From NCBI GenBank assembly GCA_036845225.1, contig DAIUEJ010000007.1:6578-70577 (forward strand): a stretch of DNA of 64,000 nucleotides, in the 5' to 3' direction. A program made the translations under genes and the position numbers. Numbering within the stretch: position 1 is the stretch's first letter; the number at the start of each line of letters is the position of its first letter. Positions 9,849 through 63,742 of the stretch are shown one piece after another. Below the pieces are notes generated by a model. It was not told where the DNA came from, searched no databases, and was given only the letters and a program-made list of their open reading frames with translations. The DNA is from Candidatus Anoxymicrobiaceae bacterium (GTDB lineage: Bacteria; Actinomycetota; Geothermincolia; Fen-727; Anoxymicrobiaceae).

Positions 9849-9880
9849 CTAAACTTCTTGGGGTCAGACCCCTTTTTGTA
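9849..9880. repeat. GGGGTCAGACCCC palindromic element
   Basis: CTAAACTTCTT-GGGGTCAGACCCC(9860-9872)-TTTTTGTA. Confidence 0.9.
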
Positions 9881-10215
9881 TCGCCGTAACCCAGCGACTT
9901 CGCCAGGCCTGCCATCTTCTTGACGACGAGGCCCAGGCCCGCCCGCCTGACCACGGGCCCCCTCCAGCTCACCATCAGTTTCTTCGTGAACTCCTGGGTC
10001 GCCCTGGCCTTGCTCTCGGTGATGATGTTCTGGATGGGTATGCCGATGATCCCCTCGACGTTGGCGAACAGCTCGTTGGTCCCCTCGACGTCGGCGAGCA
10101 CCATGCGGTGTTCGGGGTCTCGCGCCTCGGCGATGGTCCCGCTGGAGTTCCAGGTGAGGCTCTTTGCTGTCCGCTTGGAGACGCCGCATGTACCGCAGAC
10201 CTGTGTGCCGCTCAA
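9880..10215 (-). pseudogene. Truncated N-terminal fragment of a CxxC-GV...W-type hypothetical (V4R-like) gene
   Basis: AGGAGG SD + TTG 10215, MSGTQVCGTCGVSKR...LTWNSSGTI...GYGD, then the frame runs into the repeat (TKRGLTP). Confidence 0.65.
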
Positions 10216-10252
10216 CTGATCCCCTCCTGCTAGGTGCACGCGGATAATTCTA

Positions 10253-10483
10253 TCACTGCGCCGGTTGTGTTCCCCTTCGCGCGGAGTTGATGACATCGCA
10301 GGCGCGCCGGACGTTGTTCTTGAAGGAGGCGATCGACTTCTCCTGGAAGACGCCGCCTTCGGTGTACTGGATGTCGAGGACGTCCATCAGCGCGATGGGC
10401 GAAGGGTGAGGATACACCTGCACGGAGGTCATCGCCTCGTACGGTATCTGGAACGGGAGGTCCGACCCGGCTGCCCGCTTAAG
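10253..10483 (-). pseudogene. Headless 3' gene fragment
   Basis: Protein-like frame LKRAAGSDLPFQIPYEAMTSVQVYPHP...SARRGTQPAQ* begins at the arm of the 10489 repeat; no convincing start or RBS. Confidence 0.5.
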
Positions 10484-10510
10484 AAAAAGGACCCGACCCC
10501 AGGAAGTTAA
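10478..10510. repeat. Palindromic element variant GGACCCGACCCC
   Basis: CTTAAGAAAAA-GGACCCGACCCC-AGGAAGTTAA; near-identical to the 13248-13277 copy and to the reverse complement of 46778-46810. Confidence 0.85.
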
Positions 10511-11163
10511 GCGTCTCGCTGGGCTATTTCAAGGGCTTTCTTGTCGAGCTGCTCGGAGTATTCCTTCCATGTCGACATGTCTTCGGCGCTCCCGCGGAAG
10601 ATCACAAAGCGGCACGTTTCCGCGCCCGCGGGGATCGTCTGGGTGAAGCGAACCTGCCAGTCCATCCAGCCCAGCTCTTTCGCCGCGTCGAGCATTCCCT
10701 GGACGAAGTTCCTCTGGACGCGGCAGTCGAAGGCACTGTAGCAGTCCTGGTGCGGGCACCAGATGATGTGGAAGCTGACCTCGTCCTCGGAGTCGATGCT
10801 CGGCTCCTCGAGCGACGCGTAAGCGATACGGTTGATGACGGTCGCGAAGAAGCTGGCGAGCTCCGCCTCGGTGAGCCCCTCCGGCCTCTCGAGCCCGTCG
10901 AGCATCTGCCTGCCGACGTCCAGGCCCACCTTCCTTATGGCTTCGCAGACGACTCGCTGCCCGTCCTCGCCGAATTCGCGCTCGCACGCCTTGAGTATGC
11001 CTATCACCGCCATGGCCTGCATGGTCCCCCATTGCCAGAGCACGGCGGGGTCGAAGTCGGTCTTACCCAGGACCTCCTCGCGAAGCCGTGCCACGCCCTC
11101 GGCATACGGCTGGTTGAACTCGAATTCTTTCCAGGCGGGCTCGTCGCGGCGCTCCCAGTGCAT
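10507..11163 (-). CDS. V4R-like / ATC-hydrolase-like protein
   Basis: WCPHQDCY...DCRVQRNFVQG and FTQTIPAGAETCRFVI; GGAG SD before ATG 11163. Confidence 0.7.
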   Translation of the reverse strand: MHWERRDEPAWKEFEFNQPYAEGVARLREEVLGKTDFDPAVLWQWGTMQAMAVIGILKACEREFGEDGQRVVCEAIRKVGLDVGRQMLDGLERPEGLTEAELASFFATVINRIAYASLEEPSIDSEDEVSFHIIWCPHQDCYSAFDCRVQRNFVQGMLDAAKELGWMDWQVRFTQTIPAGAETCRFVIFRGSAEDMSTWKEYSEQLDKKALEIAQRDA

Positions 11164-11205
11164 TGCAGGACTCCTTCTCTGATGCCGATGCGCGTAAATC
11201 ATCGA

Positions 11206-11255
11206 GCCGGCGGGACGCCAGCGCTACGAACAGGCCGGCGGGACGCCAGCGCTAC
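11206..11255. repeat. GTAG-type REP doublet (tandem)
   Basis: GCCGGCGGGACGCCAGCGCTAC at 11206-11227 and 11234-11255; reverse complement begins GTAG. Confidence 0.85.
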
Positions 11256-11283
11256 GTCTTTCATTCTGACGGCGCGACGGCCG

Positions 11284-11314
11284 TGCAAAATAAAGGTTTG
11301 ACCCCTATTTTGCA
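11284..11314. repeat. Palindromic element variant overlapping the fadD stop codon
   Basis: TGCAAAATA-AAGGTTTGACCCC-TATTTTGCA with 9-bp inverted arms. Confidence 0.8.
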
Positions 11315-13104
11315 GGCTGCTGGTATTGCGCCTCGATCTCCTCGCCGAACGTGTCCACGACGATCCGGCGCTTGAGCTTCAGCGTCTGCGTCAGCATCCC
11401 GTTCTCGAGCGTGAAATCCTCTGTGAGGAAGACGAACTTCTTGGGTATCTCGTAGGAGCCGTACGTGCCCTTGAGGGCATCTTTCACCTGCTTCTCGATG
11501 GCGTCCTGGACGGCCTTGTCCTTCGCCAGCACGGCGGGCTCCTTCCCCTCGGCGCCCTCGACGTGCTTCGGGAGCACCTCGAAGTCGGGGACCAGCAGGC
11601 AGATGTTGTACTCCTTGCCCTCACCGAAGATCATGCAGTTGGCGACAAGGGGCAGGAGCTTTATCTCTTCCTCGATGGAGCTCGGGAACACGTACTTGCC
11701 GTTCAGCAGCTTGTACTGCTCTTTCAGCCGCCCCGTCACCTTGAGATATCCGTCGTTATCCAGCCTGCCGCGGTCGCCGGTCCTGAAGCCGCCGTCCGGC
11801 GTCATGACTTCGGCGGTCGCCTCGGGCTTGTTGTGATAGCCCTTCATGACGTTGGGCCCGTAGACGATGATCTCGCCGTCATCAGCGCCCTCATCCACCA
11901 CCGAGTTGTCTATGACTATCCGGCAGTTGGGGATCGCCGAGCCGACAGTCCCGATCTTGTTCTTGCCCGGCCGGTTCATGGTGGCCCCCGGCGACGTCTC
12001 GGTCAGGCCGTAGCAGTCGTAGGTCGGGATGCCCAGGTCGGAGAAGAAGTAGGCGATCTCGGGGTTCATCATCGCGCTGCCGGTGACCGCGCCCTTCAAG
12101 CGGCCGCCGAACTTATCGCGTATCTTCTTGAAGACTATCTTATCGGCGAGGTTGTACTTGACGTTGACCCACATGCTCGTCTTGCCCTGCTCAGCCAGCT
12201 CGCGCTTCTTCTTGCCGGCCTCGACCCCCATCACGAACAGCTTTCGCGGCAGGCCGCCGTCCTCGTCCATCTTCGCCCAGAGGCCGTCGTAGACCCTGTT
12301 GAAGATGCGCGGGACCGCGATAAGGAAGGTCGGCTCCGTCTTCCCAAGGTCTTCCACGACCGTCTGCGGGCTCTCGACCAGCCCCAGCGAGCCACCGATG
12401 TAGATGTAGTTGTTGAGGTCGGCGGTCTGGCCGAATGAGTGTGCCCACGGCAGGATCGAGAGGCTGCGGTCCTCCTCGTTGAGGTCGGGGAAACAGGCGC
12501 CGCAGTCGACGACGTTGGAGGTCAGGTTCCCGTGCGACAGCAGGACGCCCTTAGGCTCGCCCGTGGTGCCCGAGGTGTAGATGAGAAGAGCGATGTCGTC
12601 GGGGCCCGCCGGCTTGACGGACGGGACGGGCTTCTCGCGTCCCTTGCGCTCCAGGTCGGCCATTGTGTTCGGTCCGTCGCCCTCGATCAGGTACAGCTTC
12701 AGGCCCGGGAAGTCTGAGGCGAACCCCTCGACCTTCTCGAGCAACTCCGGCTTGGAGATGAACAGCGCCTTTATCCCGCTGTCGCCGATGATGTACTTCC
12801 AGGTGCTCTCGAGCTCGGCTTCGTACATGGGGATGAAGCGCGCGCCAAGACTGTAAGTCGCGTAAGCGATTATCGCCCACTCGACCCTGTTGTTAGCGAT
12901 GATCCCGACGCAGTCGCCTTTTCCGAAGCCATCTGCGGCCAGTCCGCCGCGCAGGTCGTCGACGCGCTTCGCCACCTCGGCGTAGGTGACCCACTCGTAC
13001 TCGCCGGCCTTGTTCTTGGTCCCGAAGAGCTTGTTTGACCCGTGTTTGGCCACACTGCGCTCGAACATGTCAACGAGGTTGTCCGGCCTGTCGTCACTGC
13101 TCAT
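11305..13104 (-). CDS. fadD: Long-chain fatty acid--CoA ligase (FadD/AMP-dependent synthetase)
   Basis: YTSGTTGEPKG, YGLTETSP, FRTGDRG, TGRLKE...GKYVFP and LTQTLKLKRR. Confidence 0.92.
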   Translation of the reverse strand: MSSDDRPDNLVDMFERSVAKHGSNKLFGTKNKAGEYEWVTYAEVAKRVDDLRGGLAADGFGKGDCVGIIANNRVEWAIIAYATYSLGARFIPMYEAELESTWKYIIGDSGIKALFISKPELLEKVEGFASDFPGLKLYLIEGDGPNTMADLERKGREKPVPSVKPAGPDDIALLIYTSGTTGEPKGVLLSHGNLTSNVVDCGACFPDLNEEDRSLSILPWAHSFGQTADLNNYIYIGGSLGLVESPQTVVEDLGKTEPTFLIAVPRIFNRVYDGLWAKMDEDGGLPRKLFVMGVEAGKKKRELAEQGKTSMWVNVKYNLADKIVFKKIRDKFGGRLKGAVTGSAMMNPEIAYFFSDLGIPTYDCYGLTETSPGATMNRPGKNKIGTVGSAIPNCRIVIDNSVVDEGADDGEIIVYGPNVMKGYHNKPEATAEVMTPDGGFRTGDRGRLDNDGYLKVTGRLKEQYKLLNGKYVFPSSIEEEIKLLPLVANCMIFGEGKEYNICLLVPDFEVLPKHVEGAEGKEPAVLAKDKAVQDAIEKQVKDALKGTYGSYEIPKKFVFLTEDFTLENGMLTQTLKLKRRIVVDTFGEEIEAQYQQPAK

Positions 13105-13225
13105 GATGCACCCCCAGGGCTAGAACGAGTCTTTCAACGTAGTGATATCGTCATCCGGCTCAAAGATTATAACCTGCCAGGCAAGGGCGCCACACGGGTC
13201 ACGCGGTCGGTCGGGATGCTCAAGT

Positions 13226-13277
13226 GGGGTCTGACCCCGGTGGCGCACTTAAGGAAAAGGACCTGACCCCGGAAAGT
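13226..13277. repeat. Two palindromic elements in tandem
   Basis: GGGGTCTGACCCC (13226-13238)-GGTGGCGCA and GGACCTGACCCC (13259-13270). Confidence 0.9.
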
Positions 13278-13413
13278 AAAGTGAAGTTTCCTTTGCCCGG
13301 CTGGCGGGGAGTTGGTAAGATAATCCTAGGCAGCATGGGGGCGACGGAGCATTCACCGGCGACGCGCGTCCCTCGCCACTAAGTGGCTGGTCACCTGATA
13401 AGGGAGGAATACG

Positions 13414-13974: not shown

Positions 13975-14082
13975 AACACGGCACCAGTCAAAATAATGTG
14001 AGGCGGACATGGGCAACCCGTGTGCCCGCTCGACGGACCGGGTTGCAGCCCATGCCGGCATCACCATCAAAGGGAGGTATAC

Positions 14083-17635: not shown

Positions 17636-17911
17636 TTGAAGGTGCACGTCCGCTATGTCGGCCTGTTCGCGAAATACGTGGGCGAGCGGGAAAGAGACTT
17701 CGATCTGCCCGACGGCGCCACCGCGGACGACCTCCTCGGGCGGCTTGCTGACCAGTACAGGGAAACCCTCCCCGAAAGCTTCATGGACAAAGAGACCGGC
17801 CGGCTGCACAAGAGCGTCCGCCTGGCCGCCACCAGCGGCGCGATCGGACCGGAACAAGAGCTCAACGATGGCGACAACCTACTCGTATTGTTCACCCTCG
17901 CCGGCGGCTGA
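17636..17911 (+). CDS. MoaD/ThiS-family sulfur carrier
   Basis: Ubiquitin-like, about 91 aa, ends FTLAGG; follows aor; TTG/GTG start uncertain. Confidence 0.85.
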   Translation: MKVHVRYVGLFAKYVGERERDFDLPDGATADDLLGRLADQYRETLPESFMDKETGRLHKSVRLAATSGAIGPEQELNDGDNLLVLFTLAGG

Positions 17912-17973
17912 GTGTAAAACCGGTGCCAGGCACTTTCTTTTCACTTTGAAAAACGGGGGTCAGGCACTTTTTT
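17908..17973. repeat. Two palindromic element variants
   Basis: CTGAGTGTAAAACC-GGTGCCAGGCAC-TTTCTTTTCAC (36/37 identical to the reverse complement of 54553-54589), then AAAAAC-GGGGGTCAGGCAC-TTTTTT (matches 20716-20740). Confidence 0.9.
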
Positions 17974-18040
17974 GCCGAGGGCCTGTGAGCCCGTGGTGAA
18001 GAAGAGCGTGAGTTTCTCGTCGACAGCCCGCAGGTCCCTT

Positions 18041-18553: not shown

Positions 18554-18621
18554 TTGTTCATCGCGCCTCGGGTATAGAACTGTCGCGAATCATCATACCC
18601 GAACCGGGCGCGTCCACTGAT

Positions 18622-18742
18622 GCCGGCGGGACGCCGGCGCTACGGACGTAGAGCAGGAGGCCACATGCCGGCGGGACGCCGGCGCTACGAACACGCGGCG
18701 GGACGCCGGCGCTACGAAAGGATAGCGGGACGCCGGCGATAC
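18622..18742. repeat. GTAG-type REP array, 4 copies
   Basis: GCCGGCGGGACGCCGGCGCTAC at 18622 and 18667, and shortened or variant copies at 18695 and 18725. Confidence 0.85.
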
Positions 18743-18801
18743 GGACGTAGCCGTTGCTGATAGAATGCCCGTGTTGAAAGCGGCAAGCGGAGGATGCTTC
18801 G

Positions 18802-20052: not shown

Positions 20053-20697
20053 ATGATGGAACACTTGATTAGGGATGCCCACATGTCCGACGCGACTGAC
20101 ATCGCGAAGCTCAGCTACCTTGCCGGCCAGAGCCACGTCCAGGTCTCGATATTCGACCTGATGGTGTCGGGACCCTACGGGATGACCGACGAGAGAATCG
20201 AGAACATGGCGAAGATCGTCGCGGCCGAGGCGCCGTCCTGGATGTCGTACCGCCATTACCATGTGGTGGAAGCCGGAGGGAAGGTGGCAAGCGGGCTTGA
20301 GACTTTCATGCCTGAGGAGGCGGGCAACCGGCAGTTCGGGGACGCATTGAAAGAGGCAGGCTGGTCTGTCAAAGACATTATGGAGATGGCCGCGAGGATG
20401 CGCGTGTGGTTCAAGGTCGATCCAGGGCGCGAGCCGGGTTACCTGATAGTCGAGAACGTCGCGACATACGAGGAGTACAGGGGCAACGGCTTCACGTCCG
20501 AGCTGCTCGCCCAGGCGATCGCCACGGGGCGCGACGAGGGGCACAAGGGGCTCCAGCTCACGGTGCTGCTCGGCAACGAGCCCGCCATCCGCGCCTACGA
20601 GAAAGCCGGCTTTGCCATGGTGAAGACCATGGAAGGAAAGAAGTTTGAGAAGGTCTTCTCATCTCCGGGCGTGGGACAGATGCTCCTGAAGTTCTAG
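20053..20697 (+). CDS. GNAT-family N-acetyltransferase
   Basis: VENVATYEEYRGNGF...LTVLLGNEPAIRAYEKAGF. Confidence 0.9.
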   Translation: MMEHLIRDAHMSDATDIAKLSYLAGQSHVQVSIFDLMVSGPYGMTDERIENMAKIVAAEAPSWMSYRHYHVVEAGGKVASGLETFMPEEAGNRQFGDALKEAGWSVKDIMEMAARMRVWFKVDPGREPGYLIVENVATYEEYRGNGFTSELLAQAIATGRDEGHKGLQLTVLLGNEPAIRAYEKAGFAMVKTMEGKKFEKVFSSPGVGQMLLKF

Positions 20698-20700
20698 CGA

Positions 20701-20790
20701 AAAACGGGGGTCACGAAAAACGGGGGTCAGGCACTTTTTCGCCGTTTTTTTTCACGAGGTGCGCCACCGGGGTCTGACCCCGGTGGCGCA
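20701..20790. repeat. Cluster of palindromic elements
   Basis: Aborted AAAACGGGGGTCA, then AAAAACGGGGGTCAGGCACTTTTT, then the perfect 31-nt hairpin TGCGCCACCGGGGTC-T-GACCCCGGTGGCGCA (20760-20790). Confidence 0.9.
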
Positions 20791-20889
20791 GCTGAGTAAT
20801 AATAGGGGCAGCCGGTCGGGGACCAGAGCGAGGAAGGACAGAGGATGACCACCCAGGCGGATAAGGCGAAGCAGAAGAAGAAGAGGGCG

Positions 20890-21092
20890 CTCAGCCCCTT
20901 CGCTCCAGCCCCATTACAGGGCCTTCATCACTACTACGGGCTGATCCGCCCCCGTGCCCCACATCGGTACTCAGACCCTTGAGGGGGCTTCCCCCTTGGG
21001 TTTCTCCCTTTGCATCGGGGCAACGGGTTCCCACGTTCCGCACGAGAGCCTGGACCAGGTTCACGCCGCCTCTATGCCGGACGCCGCCCGGG
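20890..21092 (-). mobile_element. Group II intron RNA remnant (class D/RmInt1-like; distal DI to DII/DIII), no RT ORF
   Basis: Minus strand reads CGGGCGGCGTCCGGCATAGAGGCGGCGTGA...GGAACGTGGGAACC...GATGCAAAGGGAGAA...GAGTACCGATG...GGGGCGGA...CTGTAATGGGGCTGGAGCGAAGGGG, colinear with conserved group II intron segments as recalled for RmInt1. Confidence 0.85.
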
Positions 21093-21113
21093 CGAAAACA
21101 ACCTCTACAAGCA

Positions 21114-21136
21114 GGGTCTGACCCCAGAAAGTTTAG
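21114..21136. repeat. Palindromic element carrying the glycosyltransferase stop codon
   Basis: GGGTCTGACCCC-AGAAAGTTTAG; the same arm as the 9849-9872 copy. Confidence 0.85.
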
Positions 21137-22620
21137 TTGCTCCAGGTCAGCTCGACGGCAGTACCCCACTTGCTGTTGCGGGTTATCTTGTAAGGGACCC
21201 AATCCGCGAGCCCCGCGAGGAACGAATCCACCTGCCCCACGTCCGGCCGCGTCTTGATGTATATCCAGTCGGAGTTGTAGGGGATGGCGTATTGATCGAC
21301 CAGCTCTCTCGGCTTAGCCAGGATATTCGAGAACAGCGATATCTGCTTCGTGTTCCCGAGATAGTACGTGAGGATCGCGTCCCTGTTGATCTGCTTCTCG
21401 TCAAGGATCACCATGACCGGATTGCCCCCGGCCCGTGCCTTGAGGTATAGGGCGTCTTTCTTCACGCCCGCTGAATAGTCCCAGTAAGTCTTGTACCTCG
21501 CCCTGTTGTAGCTCAGGTAGCCGAGGGAGAACGCCGAGAAAACGGTGACCACGACAAGGGCTGCCACCAGCGCGGACTTCGTGGACCTCTCGGCCCAGGG
21601 GTTTGTCACCAGGCGCGGGACCATGCTCAGTATGCCGGCGGCTCCGATGCCGCACAGCATCGCGATAGCCGGCAACGCGGGCGGCACCATCCAGTACGGC
21701 TTGCCCACCGAGAGCGAAAGAAAGAGGTAGACGCCGAGGAACCAAACCACCGGCAGCGCGTAGTCCTTTTTCCCGTCCCGGATGCGCTTGTAGACGCAGA
21801 CCGCCAGACCCAGGGCCAGCAATGCCAGCATCAGCCATCCGATGTCTTTCGTGAGTCCCGTGAAGTAGTACCTGACAGGTTGCTTGAAGAGCGCGCCGTC
21901 CCCCGCGCCGCTCCAGAAGAAGCTCCAGAAGTGACCCACGCCCGTCGCGAGCCAGGCGTACCACCAGAAGGACATCACGAACCCGATCCCGGCGATGAAG
22001 GCGGTCTGCTTCAGTTTCTCCCTGTCCCAGCAAGCCAGGGAGAACAGGAATACAGCCATGAGCGCGAATATCGCCGTCTCCTTGGTCAGCATCCCGAGGC
22101 CGAAGACGACTCCGGCCCACTTCCAGCTTCCGCGCACGAACAGGTAGATAGTGAGGACGATGAGAAAGCCGACCATCGGGTCCTGCTTGACCCAGGTGTC
22201 CATGACGACAGCCGCCGGCATGACCGCGAGCACGAACGCGGCGAGCAGCGCGACCCCCTGGCTGAAAAGCCGTTTCGCGATCGCGTATGTCACGACGAGC
22301 GTGCCGAAGGAGAAGAGTATCGAAAAGACCTTATAAGCAATGACCCTGGCCCCGAAAGCCTTGGTGAGGAAAGCCATCAGCCAGAGGTAGAGCGGCGGGT
22401 GGATGTGTGAGAGCGAGGACCACACGTCCCTGGTGCCCGCGCTGAACGACTTGATGGTCAGGGCAAGCTGCGCCTCGTCCCGTCCCAGGAGCTGGTTGAT
22501 GTAACGCAGCCTGAGGACGAGGAAGAGCGCCGCGATGGCGGCAAGCCGCCCATACCAGCCATTTCCGGCTGCTATCAGTGGAGGTCTCGCCGTCGGTTTC
22601 CTCGGCAGTCGCTTTCTCAT
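21133..22620 (-). CDS. GT-C fold glycosyltransferase (GT39/ArnT/PMT-like)
   Basis: RDEAQ...HPPLY near the N-terminus, many TM segments, GMLTKETA; true start is likely ATG 22620 because the longer ORF only translates the repeat. Confidence 0.85.
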   Translation of the reverse strand: MRKRLPRKPTARPPLIAAGNGWYGRLAAIAALFLVLRLRYINQLLGRDEAQLALTIKSFSAGTRDVWSSLSHIHPPLYLWLMAFLTKAFGARVIAYKVFSILFSFGTLVVTYAIAKRLFSQGVALLAAFVLAVMPAAVVMDTWVKQDPMVGFLIVLTIYLFVRGSWKWAGVVFGLGMLTKETAIFALMAVFLFSLACWDREKLKQTAFIAGIGFVMSFWWYAWLATGVGHFWSFFWSGAGDGALFKQPVRYYFTGLTKDIGWLMLALLALGLAVCVYKRIRDGKKDYALPVVWFLGVYLFLSLSVGKPYWMVPPALPAIAMLCGIGAAGILSMVPRLVTNPWAERSTKSALVAALVVVTVFSAFSLGYLSYNRARYKTYWDYSAGVKKDALYLKARAGGNPVMVILDEKQINRDAILTYYLGNTKQISLFSNILAKPRELVDQYAIPYNSDWIYIKTRPDVGQVDSFLAGLADWVPYKITRNSKWGTAVELTWSN

Positions 22621-22655
22621 CCATGAGTTGATTAATTGTATCTCAGGGGTGTTGC

Positions 22656-22760
22656 GAAAATGCACCACTGGGGTCAGGCACCGGTGGTGCATTTCTGGAA
22701 GTCTGCGATCGTGCACGGAGAAAATGCACCACCGGTGCCTGACCCCAGTGGTGCGTTTTC
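22656..22760. repeat. Inverted doublet of palindromic elements (REPIN-like)
   Basis: GAAAATGCACCACT-GGGGTCAGGCACC-GGTGGTGCATTT and its inverted copy at 22720-22760 (38/39 identical), about 25-nt spacer. Confidence 0.92.
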
Positions 22761-23589
22761 AGGCCATCGCGGACGCCGGCTTCAGCGCGCGGGTGAGCCA
22801 GTTGTCGACGTAATCGACGACCTCTTCCCAGCCCGGCTCCACGTAGATCAGATGCGACCGGCCGGGAAACTCGATGAAGTCCGTCACCGCGCTCGAGTGC
22901 CAGTACTTGCGGAAGTTCGAGCGGGTCACGGCGGCAGGCACGATGTGGTCCTCGGAGCCGGTGATGAGGAGCAACGGCTTCCGCGTCTCGTTGCGGTAGT
23001 CGACCGCGGTCGGGGGGTTGCGCATGAAGTCCGCGAGCGCGACCTGGAACTGGGGCCTGCCGGTATCGGGGACGGCGTACTCCTCGTAGACGCGGTGCGC
23101 CTCTTCCTCGCTCAACGTGTTCGCGAACGCGTAGCGGAACTGCTTGTAGGTCAGCCCGACGGCCTTGTGCCGGTTGCCGGGATGCCCGAGCACCGGAAAA
23201 GTGGACTTGAACTCGGACAGGGTGATGCGGCGCACGCCCTTGGGCGGGGCGGGGTCGATTGCCACCGCGGCCGCCCCGAGCCCGCGGTCGAGCAGCACCT
23301 GGACCGTCAGCCCTCCCAGGGAGTGTCCGATGAGTATGGGCTGCTTCTCCATGGGGCGGATCATCTTGTCGTAGTGGTCGATTATCTCGGCCATCCCGAG
23401 GTCGGCCAGAGCTGTCGGCGCCGCCTTGCGCACCGACTCGATGTCCCCCTCGTGCCCGGGCCAGCCCGGAGCCTGCACCACGTAACCCAGACCGCTCAAC
23501 CTGGTCTCGAAGTTGTGCCACGAGAGAGGGGTCATGAAGAGCCCGTGGATGACGACGACGTCATTGTTTTCGTGGCCGGTTGCTTCCAT
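22759..23589 (-). CDS. Alpha/beta hydrolase (non-heme chloroperoxidase/esterase-like)
   Basis: IHGLF, GHSLGG nucleophile, GSEDHIVP, GRSH. Confidence 0.88.
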   Translation of the reverse strand: MEATGHENNDVVVIHGLFMTPLSWHNFETRLSGLGYVVQAPGWPGHEGDIESVRKAAPTALADLGMAEIIDHYDKMIRPMEKQPILIGHSLGGLTVQVLLDRGLGAAAVAIDPAPPKGVRRITLSEFKSTFPVLGHPGNRHKAVGLTYKQFRYAFANTLSEEEAHRVYEEYAVPDTGRPQFQVALADFMRNPPTAVDYRNETRKPLLLITGSEDHIVPAAVTRSNFRKYWHSSAVTDFIEFPGRSHLIYVEPGWEEVVDYVDNWLTRALKPASAMA

Positions 23590-23966
23590 TTCAATCCCCC
23601 CAACAGTCACGACAACTACCGATTGCGGCACATCCATCATTCGGCGCGGGGCCGGGCAATCCTGCGATGGCGCCGCAGGGGGGAAACCTTGACGTCCGTC
23701 ATGGAGCGACGATTTGCGCGCGGGTAGTATGCCGGTATGGAAAGAACGAGAAGGTGTACCAGATCACACGACGTAGACGGCCAGAAAAAGAATCTTCTCG
23801 TGAAGTAGGAGTCCGGATTTACAGGGTGAATAAAGCCCCAGAAGTAGAACCCGCGAACGCTAGAGACGACACCTGAGCAGACTTGTAGGCCAAGGTTTGC
23901 CGCTAGCGCTACGCAGGTCCGGTAAGTCAGGCACGTTTGTGCCAGGTTCAAAGGAGTTGGTTTTCC

Positions 23967-26900
23967 ATGCATCACTCGAGGAAACCCGCGACAAGGACGA
24001 TTGCCCCGATTCTCGCATTCCTTTTAGTTGCCGCCTTCTTCCTGGCAGGCGCGGGCCCGATCGCCGCGAAGCCGACGCCGGCCGCGCCGAAGGCTCAAAC
24101 GCAGCCGGCGGCCAACCCGGCGCAATCACCTGTGAGAACTCAGGACTCGAAACGCACAACGGCCGCGGACAGACAGGCCGCGGCGGACCGTGCGCAGGCT
24201 CAGGGACTGACACCGGGGGTGGCGAAGAGCGGCGGCGCGGTGCCGACGCCTGGAGGCGTACCTGACTACTTCGGCCCTTATCCTAACTACGCAAACAGCC
24301 CCCTGCCCACGGCGATTGCCGCGTTTCCTTATCCGACGTTCTACTTCGCTGAGGGCACGACCCGGCCGAATTTTGAGACTTACTTCACTATCCAGAACCC
24401 GGGCACCAAGACGGCAAACGTCAGGCTGACCTACATGAGAGGGAATGGCCAGAACGCAGTCGTTACTGTGGCTGTTCCAAAGAACACCAGGTCCACCATC
24501 AATCCGGTGAGCACCCTGGGCAGCGCGGACGATGCCGCTCACGACTTCAGCACCAAGGTCGAGTCCCTCAACAAAGTGCAGGTCATAGTCGAGCGCCCGA
24601 TGTATTTCAACTACAAGGGTGTCTGGACAGGCGGGTCCGACGCGGTGGGGGCAACCGCCACGGCGTCTGCGTTCTATTTCGCGGAAGGGACGTGCCGGCC
24701 CAACTTCGATGCTTACTTCACGATTCAGAACCCCGGAAACAATAACGCGATCATCCAGCTGACCTACATGAAGGGTGACGGCACAGTAGTCACGCAGGGC
24801 TTTGGCGTGACAGCCCATACGCGCGGAACGGTACACCCCGCGGACACGCTGGGGGTCGGCGACGACGCGGCCCATGACTTCAGCACATCGATAGTCTGCA
24901 CCAACGGTCAGAAGATAGTCGCCGAGCGGCCACAGTACTTCAACTACAAGGGGGTCTGGACCGGAGGCCACGACGTCGTAGGCGCCACGGCGGGCGCGAA
25001 GCAATACTACTTCGCGGAGGGCACCAGCCGGCCGAACTTCATCCCTTACCTCACGATACAGAACCCGAACGCGGGCTCGGTGCCCGTCAAGATAACCTAC
25101 TTCATGGCTGACGGAACGAGGAAAACGCAGAACATGACGCTCGCTCCTCATTCAAGAAGCACAGCCATTCCCTCGGACATCATAGGCTCGGGCGACGTAG
25201 GGCATGACTTCAGTTCAAAAGTCGAAAGCACGAACGGGAAGAACATCATCGTCGAGCGGCCGATGTACTTCAACTACAACAACGCCTGGACCGGCGGCTC
25301 GGACGTGATGGGCGCGACCGCTTCCGCGCCGGCATACTACTTCGCGGAGGGCACCAGCCGGCCCAACTTCGACCCGTATCTTTGCATACTCAACCCGGGA
25401 GACACGGTCGCCAACCTGACCATCACATACATGAAGGGTAACTCAACGACCTCGACTCAGCTCATTTCAGTGCCTGCTTTTTCGCGAGGTACAATCTCAA
25501 TTCGTGAGAAGACGGGGACCGGGAATGACGCGGCCCACGACTTCAGCATCCGTGCCGAGTGCACGAACGGCCAGCGGGTCATAGTCGAGCGGCCGATGTA
25601 CTTCAACTACAACGGCGTATGGAACGGCGGTCACGATGCGGTCGGGCTTGCCTATCAGGCGGTCGGCGTCCAGACGGGCACCGGCGTCAGGAAGTTCGTC
25701 GATTCGCTCCCCGGACTCGGGGCGGCGAACGCCAACGACCTCGGGCAGTATATCCCGGTGGCCGTTCCCGACAAGACGAGCTTCCCCGGCTCGGACTACT
25801 ACGAGATACAGCTCGGGCAGTACAGGGAAAAACTCCACAAAGACCTTCCGTCGACCTTGCTGCGCGGCTACCGGCAGACCAACAGCTCGAATCCATCCGT
25901 GACGAAGTTCAGCTACCTGGGGCCGACGATCATCGCCCAGAAGGGCCGCCCGGTGAGGGTCAAGTTCACGAACAGCTTGCCGACCGGCGCGGGAGGAAAC
26001 CTGTTCATCCCCGTCGATACGACGGTCATGGGCGCGGGAATGGGCCCTGATGGAGTGAACGGCTACACCGAGAACCGCGCGGTCATCCACCTTCACGGCG
26101 GTAACACCCCGTGGATCAGTGACGGGACCATGCACCAGTGGATCACTCCGGCCGGGGAGACCACGCCGTATCCCCAGGGAGTCAGCGTGCAGAGCGTCCC
26201 CGACATGCCCCAGCCGACGGTTGGAGACGGGACCGAGACGTTCTACTACACAAACCAGCAGAGCGCCAGGTTGATGTTCTACCACGACCATGCGTACGGG
26301 ATAACCCGCCTGAACGTCTATGCGGGCGAAGCGGCGCCCTATCTGCTGCAGGACTCGACCGAGACCTCGCTCATCAACAGCAAGTCCATCCCGGCCGACC
26401 AGATCCCCCTGGTGATCCAGGACAAGACCTTCGTACCCGCCCCGGCGCAGCTCGCGGCCGAGGACCCGACATGGGACACGAGCAAATACGGAGGCAAGGG
26501 CAACCTCTGGTTCCCGCACGTATACATGCCAAACCAGAATCCTGGTAGCATCGATGGCGCCAACGCAATGGGGCGCTGGGATTACGGCCCGTGGTTCTGG
26601 CCGCCGTTCACAGGGATCACCAACGGACCGGTCGCGAACCCCTACTACGATCCTGTCAACGCACCCTGGGAGCCGAAGGTGATTCCGGGGACGCCCAATC
26701 CATCGATAGTACCTGAGGGGTTCATGGATACGCCCCTGGTCAACGGGACCGCTTATCCCTACGTGAAGGTGGGGCCCAAGGCATACCGGTTCCGGATACT
26801 GAACGCCTCTAACGACCGTACACTCAACCTCCAGATGTACTTCGCGAAGTCGAACGGGCAGATGTGGAAGTCGAACGGGACGCTCACCGACGGCGATGCC

Positions 26901-29195: not shown

Positions 29196-29227
29196 TGTCG
29201 ACAAGGCGTTGAACGCCTGAAAGTGAC

Positions 29228-29258
29228 GCGCCCGCCTTTCGAGGCGGGCGCTTCCCTT
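29228..29258 (+). terminator. Intrinsic terminator-like hairpin between convergent genes
   Basis: GCGCCCGCCT-TTCG-AGGCGGGCGC followed by TTCCCTTT. Confidence 0.75.
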
Positions 29259-29271
29259 TGAGCGGGCGTGC

Positions 29272-30039
29272 TCAGTCCGGCTGTTCGCTGGTGCGCTCGG
29301 GAAGAAGGAGTATCGCGCCGACCTGGAAACAGAGTGCGCCCACGAAAGTCCCGAGGTTCACGAGCATCTTATTCACGTCGTTGCCCGTGGTAGGCACGAT
29401 GTATGAGGCGGCGGCGGAGACGCCGAAGGCGAATGACCCGGCGAAGTTGAGATAAACGATCCACCATGAGAGCGTGCGTGGCCTGAGGGACCTCGCGGCG
29501 CGCCCGAGCTCGAACCACGCCAGGAGGCTCGCGATGAGGAAGCAGATAGAGCCGAAGGCGTCGGGCTTCCAGACCAGCTTGTCGACCTGCGTTCCGGAGA
29601 GGCTGGTGTTGATCGCCATGAGAGTGCTCACGTTGAAATAGATAGTGCCCGCCAGCTGGATAAGGCACGCCCACCAGGCGTAGCTCTTCGGTTCGAGAGC
29701 CAGCACGCGGAGCCGCTGCTTGCCTTCGGCGTGCAGTTCCTTGCGCCGTACGTTTATTGCCTCGAGGAACTGGAGAGCGGCAGCGGTCGTAAAGAAGATC
29801 GACCCGATGAAGAAAGTGATCGCATCGGTTTTGTTGCCGACCTTGTAGACATAGCCCGGCGCCGCGCCCAGCGCGAAGAAGCCCGCGCCGATCGCAAAGA
29901 GGACCCCTATCCACCAGCCGACGGCGCCCGGCGCCCACCAGGTGCCGCCCTTCCCCGTATCGAGAAGCGAATGGAGCTTGCGCGCCTCCCGGGGGGCCCA
30001 GCGCGTGGAAAGAGCCGGCGCAGATTGATCGACGCTCAT
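29272..30039 (-). CDS. YrhK-like integral membrane protein
   Basis: FAIGAGFFALG, FFIGSIFFTTAA, GSICFLIAS and NLGTFVGALCFQVG repeated-helix pattern. Confidence 0.65.
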   Translation of the reverse strand: MSVDQSAPALSTRWAPREARKLHSLLDTGKGGTWWAPGAVGWWIGVLFAIGAGFFALGAAPGYVYKVGNKTDAITFFIGSIFFTTAAALQFLEAINVRRKELHAEGKQRLRVLALEPKSYAWWACLIQLAGTIYFNVSTLMAINTSLSGTQVDKLVWKPDAFGSICFLIASLLAWFELGRAARSLRPRTLSWWIVYLNFAGSFAFGVSAAASYIVPTTGNDVNKMLVNLGTFVGALCFQVGAILLLPERTSEQPD

Positions 30040-31110: not shown

Positions 31111-31174
31111 GTCGACCTCCTCATGACTGGCGGCTGATGATGCGCAGCCGCTCCAGTACAGTTTACATGAGGGA

Positions 31175-31187
31175 GGGGTCAGGCACC
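31175..31187. repeat. Isolated element core GGGGTCAGGCACC
   Basis: Exact core in the divergent intergenic region; arms degenerate. Confidence 0.7.
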
Positions 31188-31266
31188 GTCCACTATTTTG
31201 TCCACCCTTGACCCCTGTCCTGTAACATGGTGAAGACCTGGTGGCTGTGACTCCGGAGTCGCGTCG

Positions 31267-31618
31267 ATGGACGAAGCAAACGCGATATGCCTCAAAGACA
31301 GAAAGCAGTGGCGCTCGTGGCTGCGGAAGAACCACGCCATCGAACGCGAGATCTGGCTGGTCATCTATAAGAAGAACCACCGGCAAGCCTTCCCTCACGT
31401 ATGAGGAAGCGGTCGAGGAGGCCGTCTGCTTCGGGTGGATCGACGGTCGCATGAAGAGCATCGACGACGAGAAGTATATGCAGCGCTATTCGCCGAGGAC
31501 GGCGAAGAGCACATGGTCGGAGTCCAATATCGCGAGAGCCGAGAAGATGATCGCCGAGGGAAAGATGACGGAGGCAGGACTCAGAGCCTACCGGCAGGGA
31601 GTGAAAGGAGGGGTCTGA
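31267..31618 (+). pseudogene. YdeI/OmpD-associated family gene with a frameshift
   Basis: ATG 31267 frame MDEANAICLKDRKQWRSWLRKNH...EIWLVIYKK stops early; a second frame continues GKPSLTYEEAVEEAVCFGWIDG...FSPR-like; shift at about 31375-31382. Confidence 0.8.
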
Positions 31619-31623
31619 GATAC

Positions 31624-31660
31624 CACCCCCACCCCGACCCTCCCCCCTCAAGGGGGAGGG
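31624..31660. repeat. CCCTCCCCC/GGGGGAGGG palindromic repeat
   Basis: 37 nt identical to the reverse complement of 44181-44217. Confidence 0.88.
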
Positions 31661-31769
31661 AGCCAGGATGATGAAAATAATCCTTGCATAACTTGCGGAT
31701 TGCTGTAACATAAACTCCCATCAGTCACTGGTTCAACTTACCGCCTGGCGGTGAGGAGCGGTCTCTAAA

Positions 31770-42187: not shown

Positions 42188-42307
42188 ACGTCGTTCGTTT
42201 TCCACTTTTCTTTACACTTTTTCAGCGCGAACAATCTGCGCCACTGGGGTCTGACCCCGCTGGCGCAGCCTCGAGAAGTGTAAAGAAAAGTGGAAAACGA
42301 ACGACGT
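42188..42307. mobile_element. 120-bp MITE-like unit: 32-bp perfect terminal inverted repeats around a GGGGTCTGACCCC hairpin
   Basis: ACGTCGTTCGTTTTCCACTTTTCTTTACACTT (42188-42219) is the exact reverse complement of 42276-42307; the centre holds TGCGCCACT-GGGGTCTGACCCC-GCTGGCGCA (42237-42267). Confidence 0.75.
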
Positions 42308-44144: not shown

Positions 44145-44180
44145 CTTCTCCCTCCCCCTTCAGCGGTGGGGCTTGATGTC

Positions 44181-44217
44181 CCCTCCCCCTTGAGGGGGGA
44201 GGGTCGGGGTGGGGGTG
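44181..44217. repeat. CCCTCCCCC/GGGGGAGGG palindromic repeat (second copy)
   Basis: Identical inverted copy of 31624-31660; a degenerate partial copy precedes it at about 44148. Confidence 0.88.
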
Positions 44218-44236
44218 CAATGAAAGGGAGGCGAGA

Positions 44237-54514: not shown

Positions 54515-54552
54515 CGACGCGAACGCGCAAGGGGCCGCTATTGCGTCAAAAA

Positions 54553-54589
54553 GTGAAAGGAAAGTGCCTGGCACCGGTTTTACACTCAG
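54553..54589. repeat. Palindromic element variant GTGCCTGGCACC
   Basis: 36/37 identical to the reverse complement of 17908-17944. Confidence 0.9.
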
Positions 54590-58826: not shown

Positions 58827-58835
58827 GGTAGCGAA

Positions 58836-59522: not shown

Positions 59523-59555
59523 CGGGGGATCGCAGAGATAAGGAAGCGAGAGATC

Positions 59556-60146: not shown

Positions 60147-60165
60147 AGACCAGGAGAGAGAAATC

Positions 60166-61482: not shown

Positions 61483-61488
61483 CATACA

Positions 61489-61580
61489 TAGAAAAACGCA
61501 AAAAAGGGGTCAGACCCCTTCTTTGCGTTTTCTAAGCACCTGCACCAACTGCGCCACTGGGGTCAGACCCCGGTGGCGCA
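61489..61580. repeat. Two GGGGTCAGACCCC elements with different arms
   Basis: TAGAAAAACGCAAAAAA-core(61506)-TTCTTTGCGTTTTCTA and TGCGCCACT-core(61559)-GGTGGCGCA. Confidence 0.92.
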
Positions 61581-61589
61581 TTCATCTGA

Positions 61590-61817
61590 TATCATCTCGT
61601 CGTATCGACACCGGTCCTGATGTTCATTGCGGGTGACGACACGAGCGTTCCGCCGGCGCAGACCTGGGTGACGTACCGTGGCATCCAGAAGTACGCGCAG
61701 GCGCCGACGGACCTGTTCGTGTTCCCGGGGGAGCCTCACGTGATGCAGAAGCTGGCGCACCAGAAGCGGAAGATGGTCGAAGAGCAGAAGTGGTTCGACA
61801 AGTACCTGTTCAGATGA
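61590..61817 (+). pseudogene. C-terminal remnant of an S9 (prolyl oligopeptidase-like) peptidase
   Basis: TPVLMFIAGDDTSVP (catalytic Asp) and FPGEPH (catalytic His), ending WFDKYL; the upstream part, including the Ser, is missing. Confidence 0.75.
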
Positions 61818-61852
61818 TGAAGTCGTTCGATTTTACACTTTGATTACACTTT

Positions 61853-62338
61853 TCAGGCCTGCTGCTCGGAAAGCTTCGCGCCCAGCTCTCTGCCGAACTC
61901 CACAGCGCGGGCTACTTCGGTCTCCGGGAGCGTGCCCTTCTGGCGCCCGGGGGGCTTGTATCCCTTCATGCCCGCGATGAACGGCCGAGCGAGCGGGGTG
62001 AGGCCGCCTTTCTCGAGCAAATCGTACAGCTGCTCGGAAGCCTGCAGGTTGGGTTTCTCATCGAAAACGGTTCCGCCCGTGCTGAACGCCGCAAACGGCT
62101 TGCCCGCGAACCCGGACTTGATGACCTGTCTTGCGTAGCTCTTGATCTTCCTGGTCGCGCCGGGCCAGCGGGTCGCGCCGCCGATGACCACGAAATCGAG
62201 TGTGGGGTCCGGCTTGTCGGCGTACGCGACAGAGACGAGGCGTACCTCCTGGCCCGATTCATAGAGCCCATTCGCGATGGCCTCCGCGATCGTTCTGCAG
62301 CTGCCCCAGAAGCTGTGATAGACAACGACGCCTTTCAT
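61853..62338 (-). CDS. Flavodoxin-family protein
   Basis: VVYHSFWGSCRTIAEAIA, VVIGGAT, FAAFST; ATG 62338 (the longer ORF translates the repeat). Confidence 0.82.
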   Translation of the reverse strand: MKGVVVYHSFWGSCRTIAEAIANGLYESGQEVRLVSVAYADKPDPTLDFVVIGGATRWPGATRKIKSYARQVIKSGFAGKPFAAFSTGGTVFDEKPNLQASEQLYDLLEKGGLTPLARPFIAGMKGYKPPGRQKGTLPETEVARAVEFGRELGAKLSEQQA

Positions 62339-62454
62339 GGTGTGCCACCTTTCACCGTGTTCCACGAACGTCAACAGCCGACGACTATCGTACACCTTCC
62401 CGAGGTCCTTGAGCCGGCCCCCAGAACGCGATAGGATTCTGTGAAAACCTGGTG

Positions 62455-62531
62455 GAAAACCGGTGCCAGGCACTTTTTACCTCATTTTTTACACTTCGGG
62501 GTAGACGATGGGGCAGACGGTGCCTGACCCC
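62455..62531. repeat. Two element variants
   Basis: GAAAACC-GGTGCCAGGCAC-TTTTT (62462) and GGTGCCTGACCCC (62519). Confidence 0.85.
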
Positions 62532-62548
62532 TCTAGTGGAGGTGGATC

Positions 62549-63700
62549 ATGGGCAAGGCAGTTCTTCGGACAAAGCTGTGCGAGATGCTGGACATCGAGT
62601 ACCCGATCATGAGCGCGGGCATGGGACCCAATACTCTGACGGAGGAGGTCGGCGCTCCGGTCGACCTGGTCGTCGCGGTCTCTGAGGCGGGAGGCTGCGG
62701 GGTGCTCGGCGCCAGCGGCTATTCGCTCGCCGAGCTGCGCGACGCGATCCACGAGATCAGGGACAAGACGAGCAAGCCGTTCGGCGTGGACATCCTGCTC
62801 CCCAAGAACGTCGCTGACCTGGGAGCGACCGAGGGAGTCTCCGAGGTCCCCTTGAGCCAGATCCTCGCGACCATGCCCCAGCCATACCAGGACTACGTCG
62901 CGAAGTTGAAGAGCGGCCTGGACCTTCCCGACGTGGACGCGATGGTCAAGACCGACACAACCACGATGCGCCCGAAAGAAGCGGTCGAAATCTGCATCGA
63001 TGAGAAGATCCCCTTGTTCTGCGCCGGGCTCGGCAACCCCGACTTCATGGTCGAGGAGGCACACGCCAACGGTATCAAGGTGCTCGCGATCACGGGCAAC
63101 AGCAAGAACGCCAAGCGCATGGCCGCCGGTGGTATCGACATGCTGGTGGCGCAGGGGCACGAGGCGGGCGGCCACACGGGCAGGGTCGGCACCATGGCGC
63201 TCATCCCCGCATGTATCGACGCGGCTTTTCCCGTGCCGGTGATCGCCGCCGGCGGCATCGCCGACGGGCGCGGCGTCGCCGGGGCGCTTGCGATGGGCTG
63301 CATCGGTGTCTGGGTCGGCACGCGCTTCCTCGCGACCAACGAGGGCGGCGCCTCGGATATCATCAAGCAGAACATCGTCGATGCCACCGACGAGGGCACA
63401 TGCGTGAGCACGATGTTCACGGGCAAGACGCTGCGCGCGATCCGCTCGAAGTTCCACGAGTCCTGGGAGGAGTCGGGGCTGACGGCGCTGCCGTTCCCGA
63501 TGCAGATCATCGTCTCCTCGTCGCTGTTCGGCAGCTTCGTCGAGGCGAACGCCTCCGAATACATCGGTGGGTTCGCGGGACAGGCTTCGGGGATCATTCA
63601 CGAGATCAAGCCCGCGGGCGAGGTCCTGCAGGACATGGTGGACGGGGCGGTCGAGATCCTCACGAAGAAGCTGCCAGGAAGCGTGACCGCGTCCGCGTAG
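62549..63700 (+). CDS. Nitronate monooxygenase/FabK-like flavin-dependent oxidoreductase
   Basis: IEYPIMSAGM, QGHEAGGHTG, AAGGIADGRG, VGTRFLAT, GQASG. Confidence 0.9.
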   Translation: MGKAVLRTKLCEMLDIEYPIMSAGMGPNTLTEEVGAPVDLVVAVSEAGGCGVLGASGYSLAELRDAIHEIRDKTSKPFGVDILLPKNVADLGATEGVSEVPLSQILATMPQPYQDYVAKLKSGLDLPDVDAMVKTDTTTMRPKEAVEICIDEKIPLFCAGLGNPDFMVEEAHANGIKVLAITGNSKNAKRMAAGGIDMLVAQGHEAGGHTGRVGTMALIPACIDAAFPVPVIAAGGIADGRGVAGALAMGCIGVWVGTRFLATNEGGASDIIKQNIVDATDEGTCVSTMFTGKTLRAIRSKFHESWEESGLTALPFPMQIIVSSSLFGSFVEANASEYIGGFAGQASGIIHEIKPAGEVLQDMVDGAVEILTKKLPGSVTASA

Positions 63701-63704
63701 ACAT

Positions 63705-63742
63705 AAAAACGCAAAAAGGGGTCAGACCCCTTTTTGCATTTT
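63705..63742. repeat. GGGGTCAGACCCC element
   Basis: AAAAACGCAAAAA-GGGGTCAGACCCC(63718)-TTTTTGCATTTT. Confidence 0.92.

Follow-up and report, generated by a model that had tools for sequence, protein, structure and literature searches.

The stretch of DNA considered here, hereafter the window, comprises 64,000 nucleotides (64 kb) of contig DAIUEJ010000007.1 from a Candidatus Anoxymicrobiaceae bacterium and contains about 25 short repeats with a GGGGTCAG-type core, approximately one per 2 kb. We conclude, with a probability that we put at roughly 75%, that these repeats are non-autonomous elements resembling repetitive extragenic palindromes (REPs) and their inverted doublets (REPINs), that they belong to the GGGG[AT][CG]A[CG] class, and that their cognate transposase, a Y1/HUH enzyme of the TIRYT type (TnpAY1 subclass 2.1, or Group 1 of the REP-associated tyrosine transposases, RAYTs), is encoded elsewhere in the genome. 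The class is known and little studied, and the window is an unusually dense, multi-family case of it, not a new kind of system. For mobile DNA that persists over long times in bacteria and is inherited vertically, the REP/REPIN-RAYT systems are the best example; to our knowledge, work on them has been confined almost entirely to Gammaproteobacteria (RAYT Groups 2 and 3). The TIRYT/Group 1 clade is the largest and most widespread RAYT clade, and we know of no demonstrated substrate for it. In an uncultured anaerobic actinobacterium, such repeats can evidently be as dense as about one per 2 kb.

Repeat families and their shared core

A gene map of the window was made from open reading frame (ORF) length and third-position G+C, annotated with Pfam (about 58 ORFs), and over-long starts were trimmed. 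When GGGGTCAGACCCC was searched with up to two mismatches, we found 23 strand-matches, compared with 3.5 ± 2.3 in shuffled sequences, none of which (0 of 100) reached 23. For the shorter GGGGTCAG, we counted 17 occurrences in 6,679 intergenic bases and 2 in 57,321 coding bases (2.55 versus 0.03 per kb), and control 8-mers had no occurrence in the intergenic DNA of the window. A further 13-mer at 17596, returned by the mismatch search and lying across the end of a coding sequence, is probably a chance match. All 24 cores listed in a preliminary description of this DNA were recovered, position and sequence alike, and its statement that they are intergenic or at gene ends held once three over-long ORF starts had been trimmed (e.g. 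at the 31175 element, where the true start lies near 31110). Of 242 unique elements from the lineage, 200 lie in intergenic DNA. The window gave no family match in Rfam at gathering thresholds and no tRNA with ARAGORN, and a literature search using the element sequence strings returned nothing relevant.

The repeats fall into at least seven families with units of about 30–45 nt, which we labeled A–G in this analysis. Their consensus forms, written as left arm, core, and right arm, are AAAAYGCAAAAA - core - TTTTTGCRTTTT for A, TGCGCCACY - GGGGTCWGACCCC - RGTGGCGCA for B, AAATGCACCACY - GGGGTCAGGCACC - GGTGGTGCATTT for C, CTAAACTTYTT - GGGGTCAG(G/A)(T/C)CC - TTTTYCTTAAG for D, GTGTAAAACC - GGTGCCAGGCAC - TTTCYTTTCAC for E, and GAAAAAC - GGGGGTCAGGCAC - TTTTTYG for F; G consists of GGGGTCAGGCACC - GTCCAC - N6-7 - GTCCAC. 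Common to all families is an oriented core, GGGGWCAG followed by R-Y-M-C-C, whose variants include GGGGTCAGACCCC, GGGGTCAGGCACC, GGGGACAGTCCCC, and GGGGTCAGGCC. The central A/T gives a direction even to “palindromic” cores, and the approximately 13 nt flanking the core are rich in A/C to the left and in T/G to the right. Outside the core we detected no conserved tetranucleotide (information content of at most 0.42 bit at positions -20 to -1). The strings GGTAGACGATG and GTAGAC were considered as a REP-type GTAG tag and rejected: the GTAGAC/GTAG preceding element 63718 is the stop codon of the upstream gene, and the other instances lie in G-type units or in a doublet spacer.

Folded as single-stranded DNA, elements of families A, B, and C form strong hairpins (z -5 to -7) that carry the core at their apex, whereas D and E are not significant hairpins (z +0.8 and -1.1, respectively) and G is not palindromic. 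The earlier proposal of a hairpin that stays conserved as its sequence changes holds for families A, B, and C only. Two inverted doublets of the same unit (C at 22658-22758 and A at 49103-49200) fold as long hairpins, with z of -15 and -14, and six further loci are pairs of different families about 33–57 nt apart. The spacer of the A-type doublet contains CATCGGTAGACGATG. The preliminary description also spoke of interchangeable arms, which is contradicted by the 242 unique lineage elements: TGCACCAC arms accompany GGGGTCAGGCACC in 50 of 58 cases, TGCGCCAC arms accompany GGGGTCAGACCCC in 38 of 42, and A arms accompany GGG(G)ACAGGCACC in 26 of 33, and thus arms and cores are mostly linked within a family and not freely exchanged. 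A variable arm position co-varies perfectly in 77 unique B/C elements (56 with A...T, 21 with G...C, and none mismatched), a count for which the right arm was not included in the search pattern. We note that this position co-varies with the core type as well and that the 77 elements are essentially two families, so that the pattern represents one compensatory event and not many.

G-type units are composed of two direct GT[GA]GAC repeats followed by GGTGCCTGACCCC, and 14 unique copies were found, including some at loci L170, L189, L194, L198, L224, and L231. Both units in the window (62500-62531 and 31175-31207) face a start codon 17–60 nt downstream, and a promoter or 5'-UTR role is possible for them.

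The linked Y1 transposase gene

Elements were collected outside the window in two ways. A metagenome scan with the B/C-type pattern returned 119 loci (833 kb), mostly from the lineage of the window, and a scan for arm-core-arm palindromes in one genome per species returned at least 120 stretches in very many phyla. Among the 120 stretches listed, the core always lies inside a longer palindrome with lineage-specific arms, and many of these loci contain extra copies or tight clusters. In viral contigs, two control palindromes gave 18 and 1 stretches compared with 5 for the real motif, which indicates that isolated matches of this style can be ordinary hairpins. This tempers any view of the cross-phylum genome matches as a universal element, and because isolated matches are unreliable, we place weight only on multi-copy loci and on linkage to a gene.

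As the preliminary description had stated, Pfam finds no transposase among the approximately 58 ORFs of the 64-kb window. We therefore turn to the related loci, all ORFs of which were searched with E. coli RayT as a phmmer seed, the matches being Y1_Tnp proteins. At locus L156, from the same lineage (also seen as L261), positions 320-1084 on the minus strand encode a Y1_Tnp protein (PF01797, E = 2e-7) of 251 amino acids counted from the Met. This gene is bracketed by two inverted C-type elements, ACGCACCACT-GGGGTCAGGCACC-GGTGGTGCATTTT and AAAATGCACCACC-GGTGCCTGACCCC-AGTGGTGCATTTT, and its flanks are nearly identical to the C-type doublet at 22658-22758 in the window. That doublet resembles a REPIN or a miniature inverted-repeat transposable element (MITE), in that its sequence corresponds to the ends of the L156 transposase unit without the gene. 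The L156 contig has 62.9% GC, carries an F-type element, and shows a tetranucleotide correlation with the window of 0.973. With the C-type hairpin, the L156 protein makes a concrete and testable candidate enzyme-substrate pair for the largest RAYT clade; the window and related contigs further provide a clear candidate recognition motif and natural arm variants with compensatory changes.

The L156 protein contains the motifs NHYH and YIALNP, and its alignment with six other element-linked homologues has the consensus YCLMxNHxHLL ... RYIExNPVxAGLV ... WSSY. Among NCBIfam models, REP-associated tyrosine transposase scores best for it (63 bits). The cut-off of the RayT equivalog NF047646 (80 bits) is reached neither by L156 nor by the other element-linked homologues (24–74 bits), compared with 179 bits for E. 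coli RayT; for the IS200 model NF033573 (cut-off 55), L156 gives no match and the other homologues 16–22 bits. Residues 183-245 give weak matches to HTH_38 (E = 8e-5), HTH_32, and HTH_23 (E = 1e-3), all below the Pfam gathering scores. In BLASTP, L156 is 34–41% identical to the TIRYTs sml1152, pfs148A, gbm2474, dau2153, aba2776, and gsu2396 (E = 1e-27 to 8e-41) and 23–24% identical to the canonical RAYTs eco b228 and sml2816 (E = 1e-5).

A homologous Y1 gene is present in 7 of the 120 matches listed (8-kb genome loci ascertained by their elements), and in 5 of those 7 the gene has GGGGTCAG on its left and CTGACCCC on its right. Loci with this arrangement include L023, L017, and L028, from Sandaracinaceae, Iamiaceae, and Burkholderiales, respectively, as well as L096, and the layout recurs in Myxococcota, Acidimicrobiia, Alpha- and Betaproteobacteria, and Bacillota. 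The metagenome-assembled genomes (MAGs) from Sandaracinaceae and Iamiaceae also contain dispersed copies with the arms of the gene-flanking copies. Plasmid homologues from Rhodospirillum rubrum ATCC 11170 and Sporomusa termitida likewise show this pair of GGGGTCAG and CTGACCCC flanks, and one from Legionella adelaidensis has a GGGTCAGGCC inverted repeat with three Gs only, which falls short of the GGGG consensus. The inference of mobilization by an HUH (RAYT/TnpA-REP-like) enzyme made in the preliminary description is thus supported by the L156 gene between inverted C-type elements and by homologues with GGGGTCAG/CTGACCCC flanks in several phyla. All-against-all clustering of ORFs near the elements revealed no dominant neighbor family, and a homologous-protein search with the C-terminal part of the L156 transposase as the query returned no match.

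The inverted repeats flanking TIRYTs share GGGGWSAS and form moderately abundant families, which can be dimeric, clustered, or self-complementary (Di Nocera et al. 2013, PMC3733652, section 16). The GGGGWCA-type motif that the preliminary description had mentioned near some RAYT subclasses is therefore real. Quentin et al. (2018, PMC6006769) placed 20 of 26 TIRYTs in TnpAY1 subclass 2.1, which is Bertels' Group 1, quoted GGGG[AT][CG]A[CG] for their flanks, and gave as reference features NH[YFV]H, Y[IV]xLNP, a median length of about 238 amino acids, and a C-terminal helix-turn-helix domain (Bac_DnaA_C, HTH_23, or HTH_28). Bertels et al. (2017, PMC5581495) reported about 12 copies genome-wide of the 16-mers flanking Group 1 genes and argued that RAYTs behave like domesticated single-copy genes. 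In the literature that we searched, TIRYTs were mentioned only in these papers, and the associated repeats in just two. The L156 unit agrees with the TIRYT/TIRtron description in its motifs (NHYH and YIALNP), in its length of about 240–250 amino acids, possibly in a C-terminal tail with its weak helix-turn-helix signal, in its flanking inverted repeats with GGGGTCAG, which fits GGGGWSAS, and in copies that are dispersed as singles, dimers, and clusters, some of them self-complementary. It differs in the host lineage, which is new (Ca. Geothermincolia/Anoxymicrobiaceae), in the density of about one element per 2 kb compared with “moderately abundant” families or approximately 12-copy 16-mers, in the at least seven families that share a core in one lineage, and in the position of the core at the apex of a strong hairpin in three of them.

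The canonical REP/REPIN-RAYT systems of E. coli, Pseudomonas, and Stenotrophomonas (Groups 2 and 3) are similar in having short, high-copy extragenic palindromes and inverted doublets, hetero-pairs like those of bacterial interspersed mosaic elements, a Y1/HUH gene bracketed by repeats (the REPtron layout), and a likely secondary role at 3' ends. Unlike them, the present elements have no GT[AG]G at the hairpin foot and carry a conserved GGGGWCAG inside the hairpin or at its tip, and the L156 protein is only about 23% identical to E. coli RayT and scores 63 bits against the 80-bit cut-off. Because the GT[AG]G foot is missing, the elements are not canonical REPs; by the motifs and sequence closeness of the linked protein and by its GGGG[AT][CG]A[CG] flanks, they fit the TIRtron kind. 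With IS200/IS605 elements and their gene-less derivatives (PATE-type MITEs), they would share Y1/HUH chemistry, recognition of hairpins in single-stranded DNA, and the expectation of no classical target duplication. The L156 protein, however, has Y---NP and not Y---Q, is longer than the approximately 150-residue TnpA, and does not match the IS200 model; the ends here are true inverted repeats and not distinct left and right subterminal hairpins; and no tnpB was seen beside the L156 gene.

Turnover among relatives and competing explanations

The preliminary description had suggested comparing orthologous loci in relatives, and such differences were indeed found. Several metagenome loci are 95–99.5% identical to parts of the window, and of about 16 elements that could be compared at this level, one differs: the window has a 38-nt E-type unit at 17908-17948, flanked by TGA...TGA and immediately adjacent to an F-type unit, that L207 (98% identity) lacks. 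A systematic search for element indels in all overlapping metagenome loci returned this case alone. The 16-nt tandem duplication at 20698 is also polymorphic between strains. In the more distant L121 (91% amino-acid identity), elements 61493, 61549, and 63706 are missing or replaced by other units, and the E+G region ahead of the NMO gene is retained. L125 (83% identity) has A-type arms around a different core, GGGGACAGTCCCC.

From the association with the gene, we infer transposition by an enzyme of the L156 type. This enzyme would recognize the conserved core in single-stranded form, displayed by the hairpin in those families that have one, and would cut and rejoin it through a 5'-phosphotyrosine intermediate, by analogy with IS200/IS605 TnpA and E. 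coli TnpA-REP. Single units or doublets could be spread in this manner, with new copies landing preferentially beside existing elements, which would explain the hetero-pairs at distances of 33–64 nt. As the core is the only part in common, several arm families may be served by a single enzyme; alternatively, further paralogues may exist. For some copies, a secondary role for the host as a 3'-end hairpin (terminator or mRNA stabilizer) is plausible.

Several observations weigh against this assignment. The link to a transposase rests on a related contig from the same set of metagenomes (a family-level relative, species uncertain), because there is none within the window. Only C-type elements were seen flanking the gene, and for A, B, D, E, F, and G the shared core is the only link. 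Because D, E, and G are not hairpins, hairpin recognition cannot be general. The single clean indel in about 16 elements has a 3-nt TGA boundary that would also fit a microhomology-mediated deletion. The core lies about 13 times on the plus and 11 times on the minus strand of the window, and this lack of bias, which we discarded as evidence because it is uninformative, differs from elements of the IS608 type. Further, Quentin et al. (2018, PMC6006769) did not find REP-like structures in the vicinity of subclass 2.1 genes, and an enzymatic activity of subclass 2.1 proteins did not turn up in the literature, in which no targeted search for it was made.

One alternative is that the repeats are primarily intrinsic, often bidirectional terminators or 3'-end mRNA stabilizers kept by selection, the core being a favorable hairpin tip. 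Most copies do lie just 3' of stop codons, often between convergent genes, with A/C-rich left and T/G-rich right flanks; the terminator consensus fits the D-like element 9860, the A-type elements 61506 and 63718, and the E-type elements 17922, 54564, and 62462; the orientation downstream of stops is sense-biased (93 versus 54); and the result with control palindromes in viral contigs shows that single copies may be nothing more than hairpins. We nevertheless consider this distinctly unlikely. A G+C-rich stem-loop followed directly by a T-run is lacking in types B, C, D, and G (B and C have no T-run, and D and G do not fold), terminator-like sites are not enriched over shuffles (20 versus 13.6 ± 4.4 and 16 versus 12.8 ± 3.5), and some copies lie in divergent promoter regions and 17–60 nt before start codons (13226/13259, 62451-62531, and 31175). 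Near-identical 38-nt copies and inverted doublets would not be expected from convergence, and these sequences are found on both sides of Y1 transposase genes in many phyla. A terminator role can coexist with mobilization as a secondary function. Still less would we favor the cores as operators of a dimeric DNA-binding regulator with half-sites GGGGTC/GGTGCC at one-base spacing, a reading that we consider very improbable: it accounts for the 6-1-6 dyad symmetry of the core, for the mixed pairs in which half-sites occur, and for copies at promoter or 5'-UTR positions (62500-62531 and 31175), but most copies come after stop codons, about 25 copies within 54 kb adjoin functionally unrelated genes, the central A/T is oriented consistently around transposase genes, and long complementary arms, inverted doublets, and transposase linkage are foreign to operators.

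It is also conceivable, though unlikely, that the elements are immobile relics or host-maintained sites, or were spread by recombination, gene conversion, or a different transposase, with the Y1 protein domesticated for another task on single-stranded DNA. The great stability of the elements at 95–99.5% identity (one indel in about 16) would agree with this, as would the strain-variable segments that start beside elements (61608 and the L207 junction at 20124/29272) and the domesticated, single-copy behavior of RAYTs with about 12 copies of Group 1 16-mers (Bertels et al. 2017, PMC5581495). The E-type unit, however, is a precise 38-nt presence/absence difference, relatives have different families at orthologous intergenic sites, the density is very high with many families, and the doublets mirror the ends of the gene-bearing unit, as expected of deletion derivatives that can still be mobilized. 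We thus retain mobilization by a TIRYT-type transposase as the preferred explanation. More tentatively, and at somewhat less than even odds, the Group 1/subclass 2.1/TIRYT clade may in general have REP-like cognate elements with a deeply conserved oriented core (GGGGWCAG + RYMCC) from Actinomycetota to Bacillota and Proteobacteria and with lineage- and family-specific arms, and in some lineages one enzyme type may sustain a large population made up of several families, as dense as REPINs and with the motif at the apex of the hairpin and not at its foot.

Element list and other features of the window

The elements of the window are collected in Table 1. A core akin to that of the degenerate element at 11285..11313 is found in the relative L121 as GGGGTTTGACCCC.

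Table 1. Core-containing elements of the 64-kb window, with family, position, strand, and surroundings
Element	Position	Strand	Remarks
D-like CTAAACTTCTT-GGGGTCAGACCCC-TTTTTGTATC	9849..9882	+	3' of P-type ATPase gene; terminator-like
D-type, GGGGTCGGGTCC core on - strand	10477..10512	-	adjoins stop of gene 10507-11202(-)
A-like GCAAAATAAA-GGTTTGACCCC-TATTTTGC, degenerate core	11285..11313	-	covers stop codon of 11305-13104(-)
B-type half element (core and right arm GGTGGCGCA only)	13226..13247	-	divergent intergenic region
D-type, GGACCTGACCCC on + strand	13246..13283	-	
E-type, GGTGCCAGGCAC core	17911..17948	+	38-nt unit without counterpart in 98%-identical L207
F-type TTGAAAAAC-GGGGGTCAGGCAC-TTTTTTGCCG	17946..17977	+	
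F-type with 16-nt tandem duplication (CGAAAAACGGGGGTCA x2)	20698..20744	+	duplication missing from strain L194
B-type hairpin AGGTGCGCCACC-GGGGTCTGACCCC-GGTGGCGCAGCT	20757..20793	-	
D-type	21111..21137	-	at stop of 21133-22716(-)
C-type inverted doublet	22658..22758	22658-22694 +, 22721-22758 -	26-nt spacer; DNA fold -54.5 kcal/mol, z -15.3
G-type GGGGTCAGGCACC-GTCCAC-N7-GTCCAC, not a hairpin	31175..31207	+	upstream of true 4Fe-4S gene start (~31110, -)
B-type hairpin	42236..42268	-	inside 120-nt palindrome 42188-42307 with outer arms ACGTCGTTCGTTTTCCACTTTTCTTTACAC; z -11.9
D-type GCGACTAAACTTTTT-GGGGTCAGGTCC-TTTTTCTTGAGTCGC	46774..46815	+	pairing limited to outer 5-6 bp; z +0.76
C-type hairpin, left arm degenerate	46828..46863	+	
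A-type inverted doublet, cores GGGACAGGCACC / GGTGCCTGTCCC	49103..49200	49103-49136 +, 49166-49200 -	-44.6 kcal/mol, z -14.4
E-type, GTGCCTGGCACC on + strand	54548..54587	-	
A-type hairpin AAAACGCAAAAAA-GGGGTCAGACCCC-TTCTTTGCGTTTT	61493..61531	+	z -7.2; missing at orthologous L121 site
B-type hairpin CTGCGCCACT-GGGGTCAGACCCC-GGTGGCGCA	61549..61580	+	z -6.0
E-type	62451..62495	+	upstream of NMO gene; kept in relative L121
G-type GGTAGAC-N6-GGCAGAC-GGTGCCTGACCCC	62500..62531	-	17 nt before NMO start codon; kept in L121, L212, L260
A-type hairpin AAAACGCAAAAA-GGGGTCAGACCCC-TTTTTGCATTTT	63706..63742	+	between convergent genes; missing in L121

Four ORFs called mechanically cross elements (9781-10296(-), 21133-22716(-), 30055-31461(-), and 61853-62473(-)), of which one is probably spurious and three have starts placed too far upstream. 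A comparable over-extension in another genome is seen at L017, where “MGSDPIV” is translated through an element. Automatic annotation of such genomes will thus over-extend genes across repeats and call small spurious ORFs, and the repeats matter also for assembly and for strain-level comparison of such MAGs.

Larger differences between strains were noted as well. A segment of about 9 kb at 20124-29272, which contains part of a GNAT gene, a PMT-type glycosyltransferase, a hydrolase, and a 1752-amino-acid ORF without a Pfam match, is not present in the 98%-identical L207, which has in its place 168 nt with two elements, one C-like and one D-type. A hypervariable slot at 61609-61852, which starts about 28 nt past the B-type element 61549..61580, holds a 65-amino-acid piece from the C-terminus of an S9 peptidase (61620-61817). 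In L228 and L212 the slot is occupied by a different sequence of 557 nt, and in L121 by two other small genes.

Other intergenic repeats are also present. A different repeat of about 23 nt, GCCGGCGGGACGCCGGCGCTACG, forms arrays at 11203-11270 and 18620-18750, the copy number of which varies between strains (in L207, 18 nt and 27 nt are missing from the second array). A G/C-run palindromic motif, CCCTCCCCCT(C/T)(A/G)AGGGGGAGGG, with adjacent GGGGTGGGGGTG tracts, occurs at 31625-31665 and 44150-44225 and is a third, unrelated intergenic repeat type. Direct repeats of GTGGAAAA or GTGTAAA (e.g. AAGTGTAAAGAAAAGTGGAAAACGAACGACGT) are found at 42188-42307, 53590-53614, and 61830-61852 and at 1040-1080 of L121; at 42188-42307 they make up the 120-nt palindrome that encloses a B-type element, an arrangement suggestive of a nested insertion, and elsewhere they occur without the core.

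The gene content of the window is typical of an anaerobe, with aldehyde:ferredoxin oxidoreductase, selenocysteine formate dehydrogenase, and MTHFR, and the closest named homologues of the NMO protein are in MAGs of Ca. Anoxymicrobiaceae/Ca. Geothermincolia (Actinomycetota). Positions 1-9848 contain no element; several genes there have a somewhat lower third-position G+C, and an XRE-type helix-turn-helix gene (1536-1886) and AT-rich palindromes near 1950-2010 are present. This part may be a separately acquired segment. The alpha subunit of the formate dehydrogenase (31770-34460) is encoded in a single frame with an in-frame TGA at 32820-32822 (...CARL*HSPTVAGL...), which would fit a selenocysteine codon.

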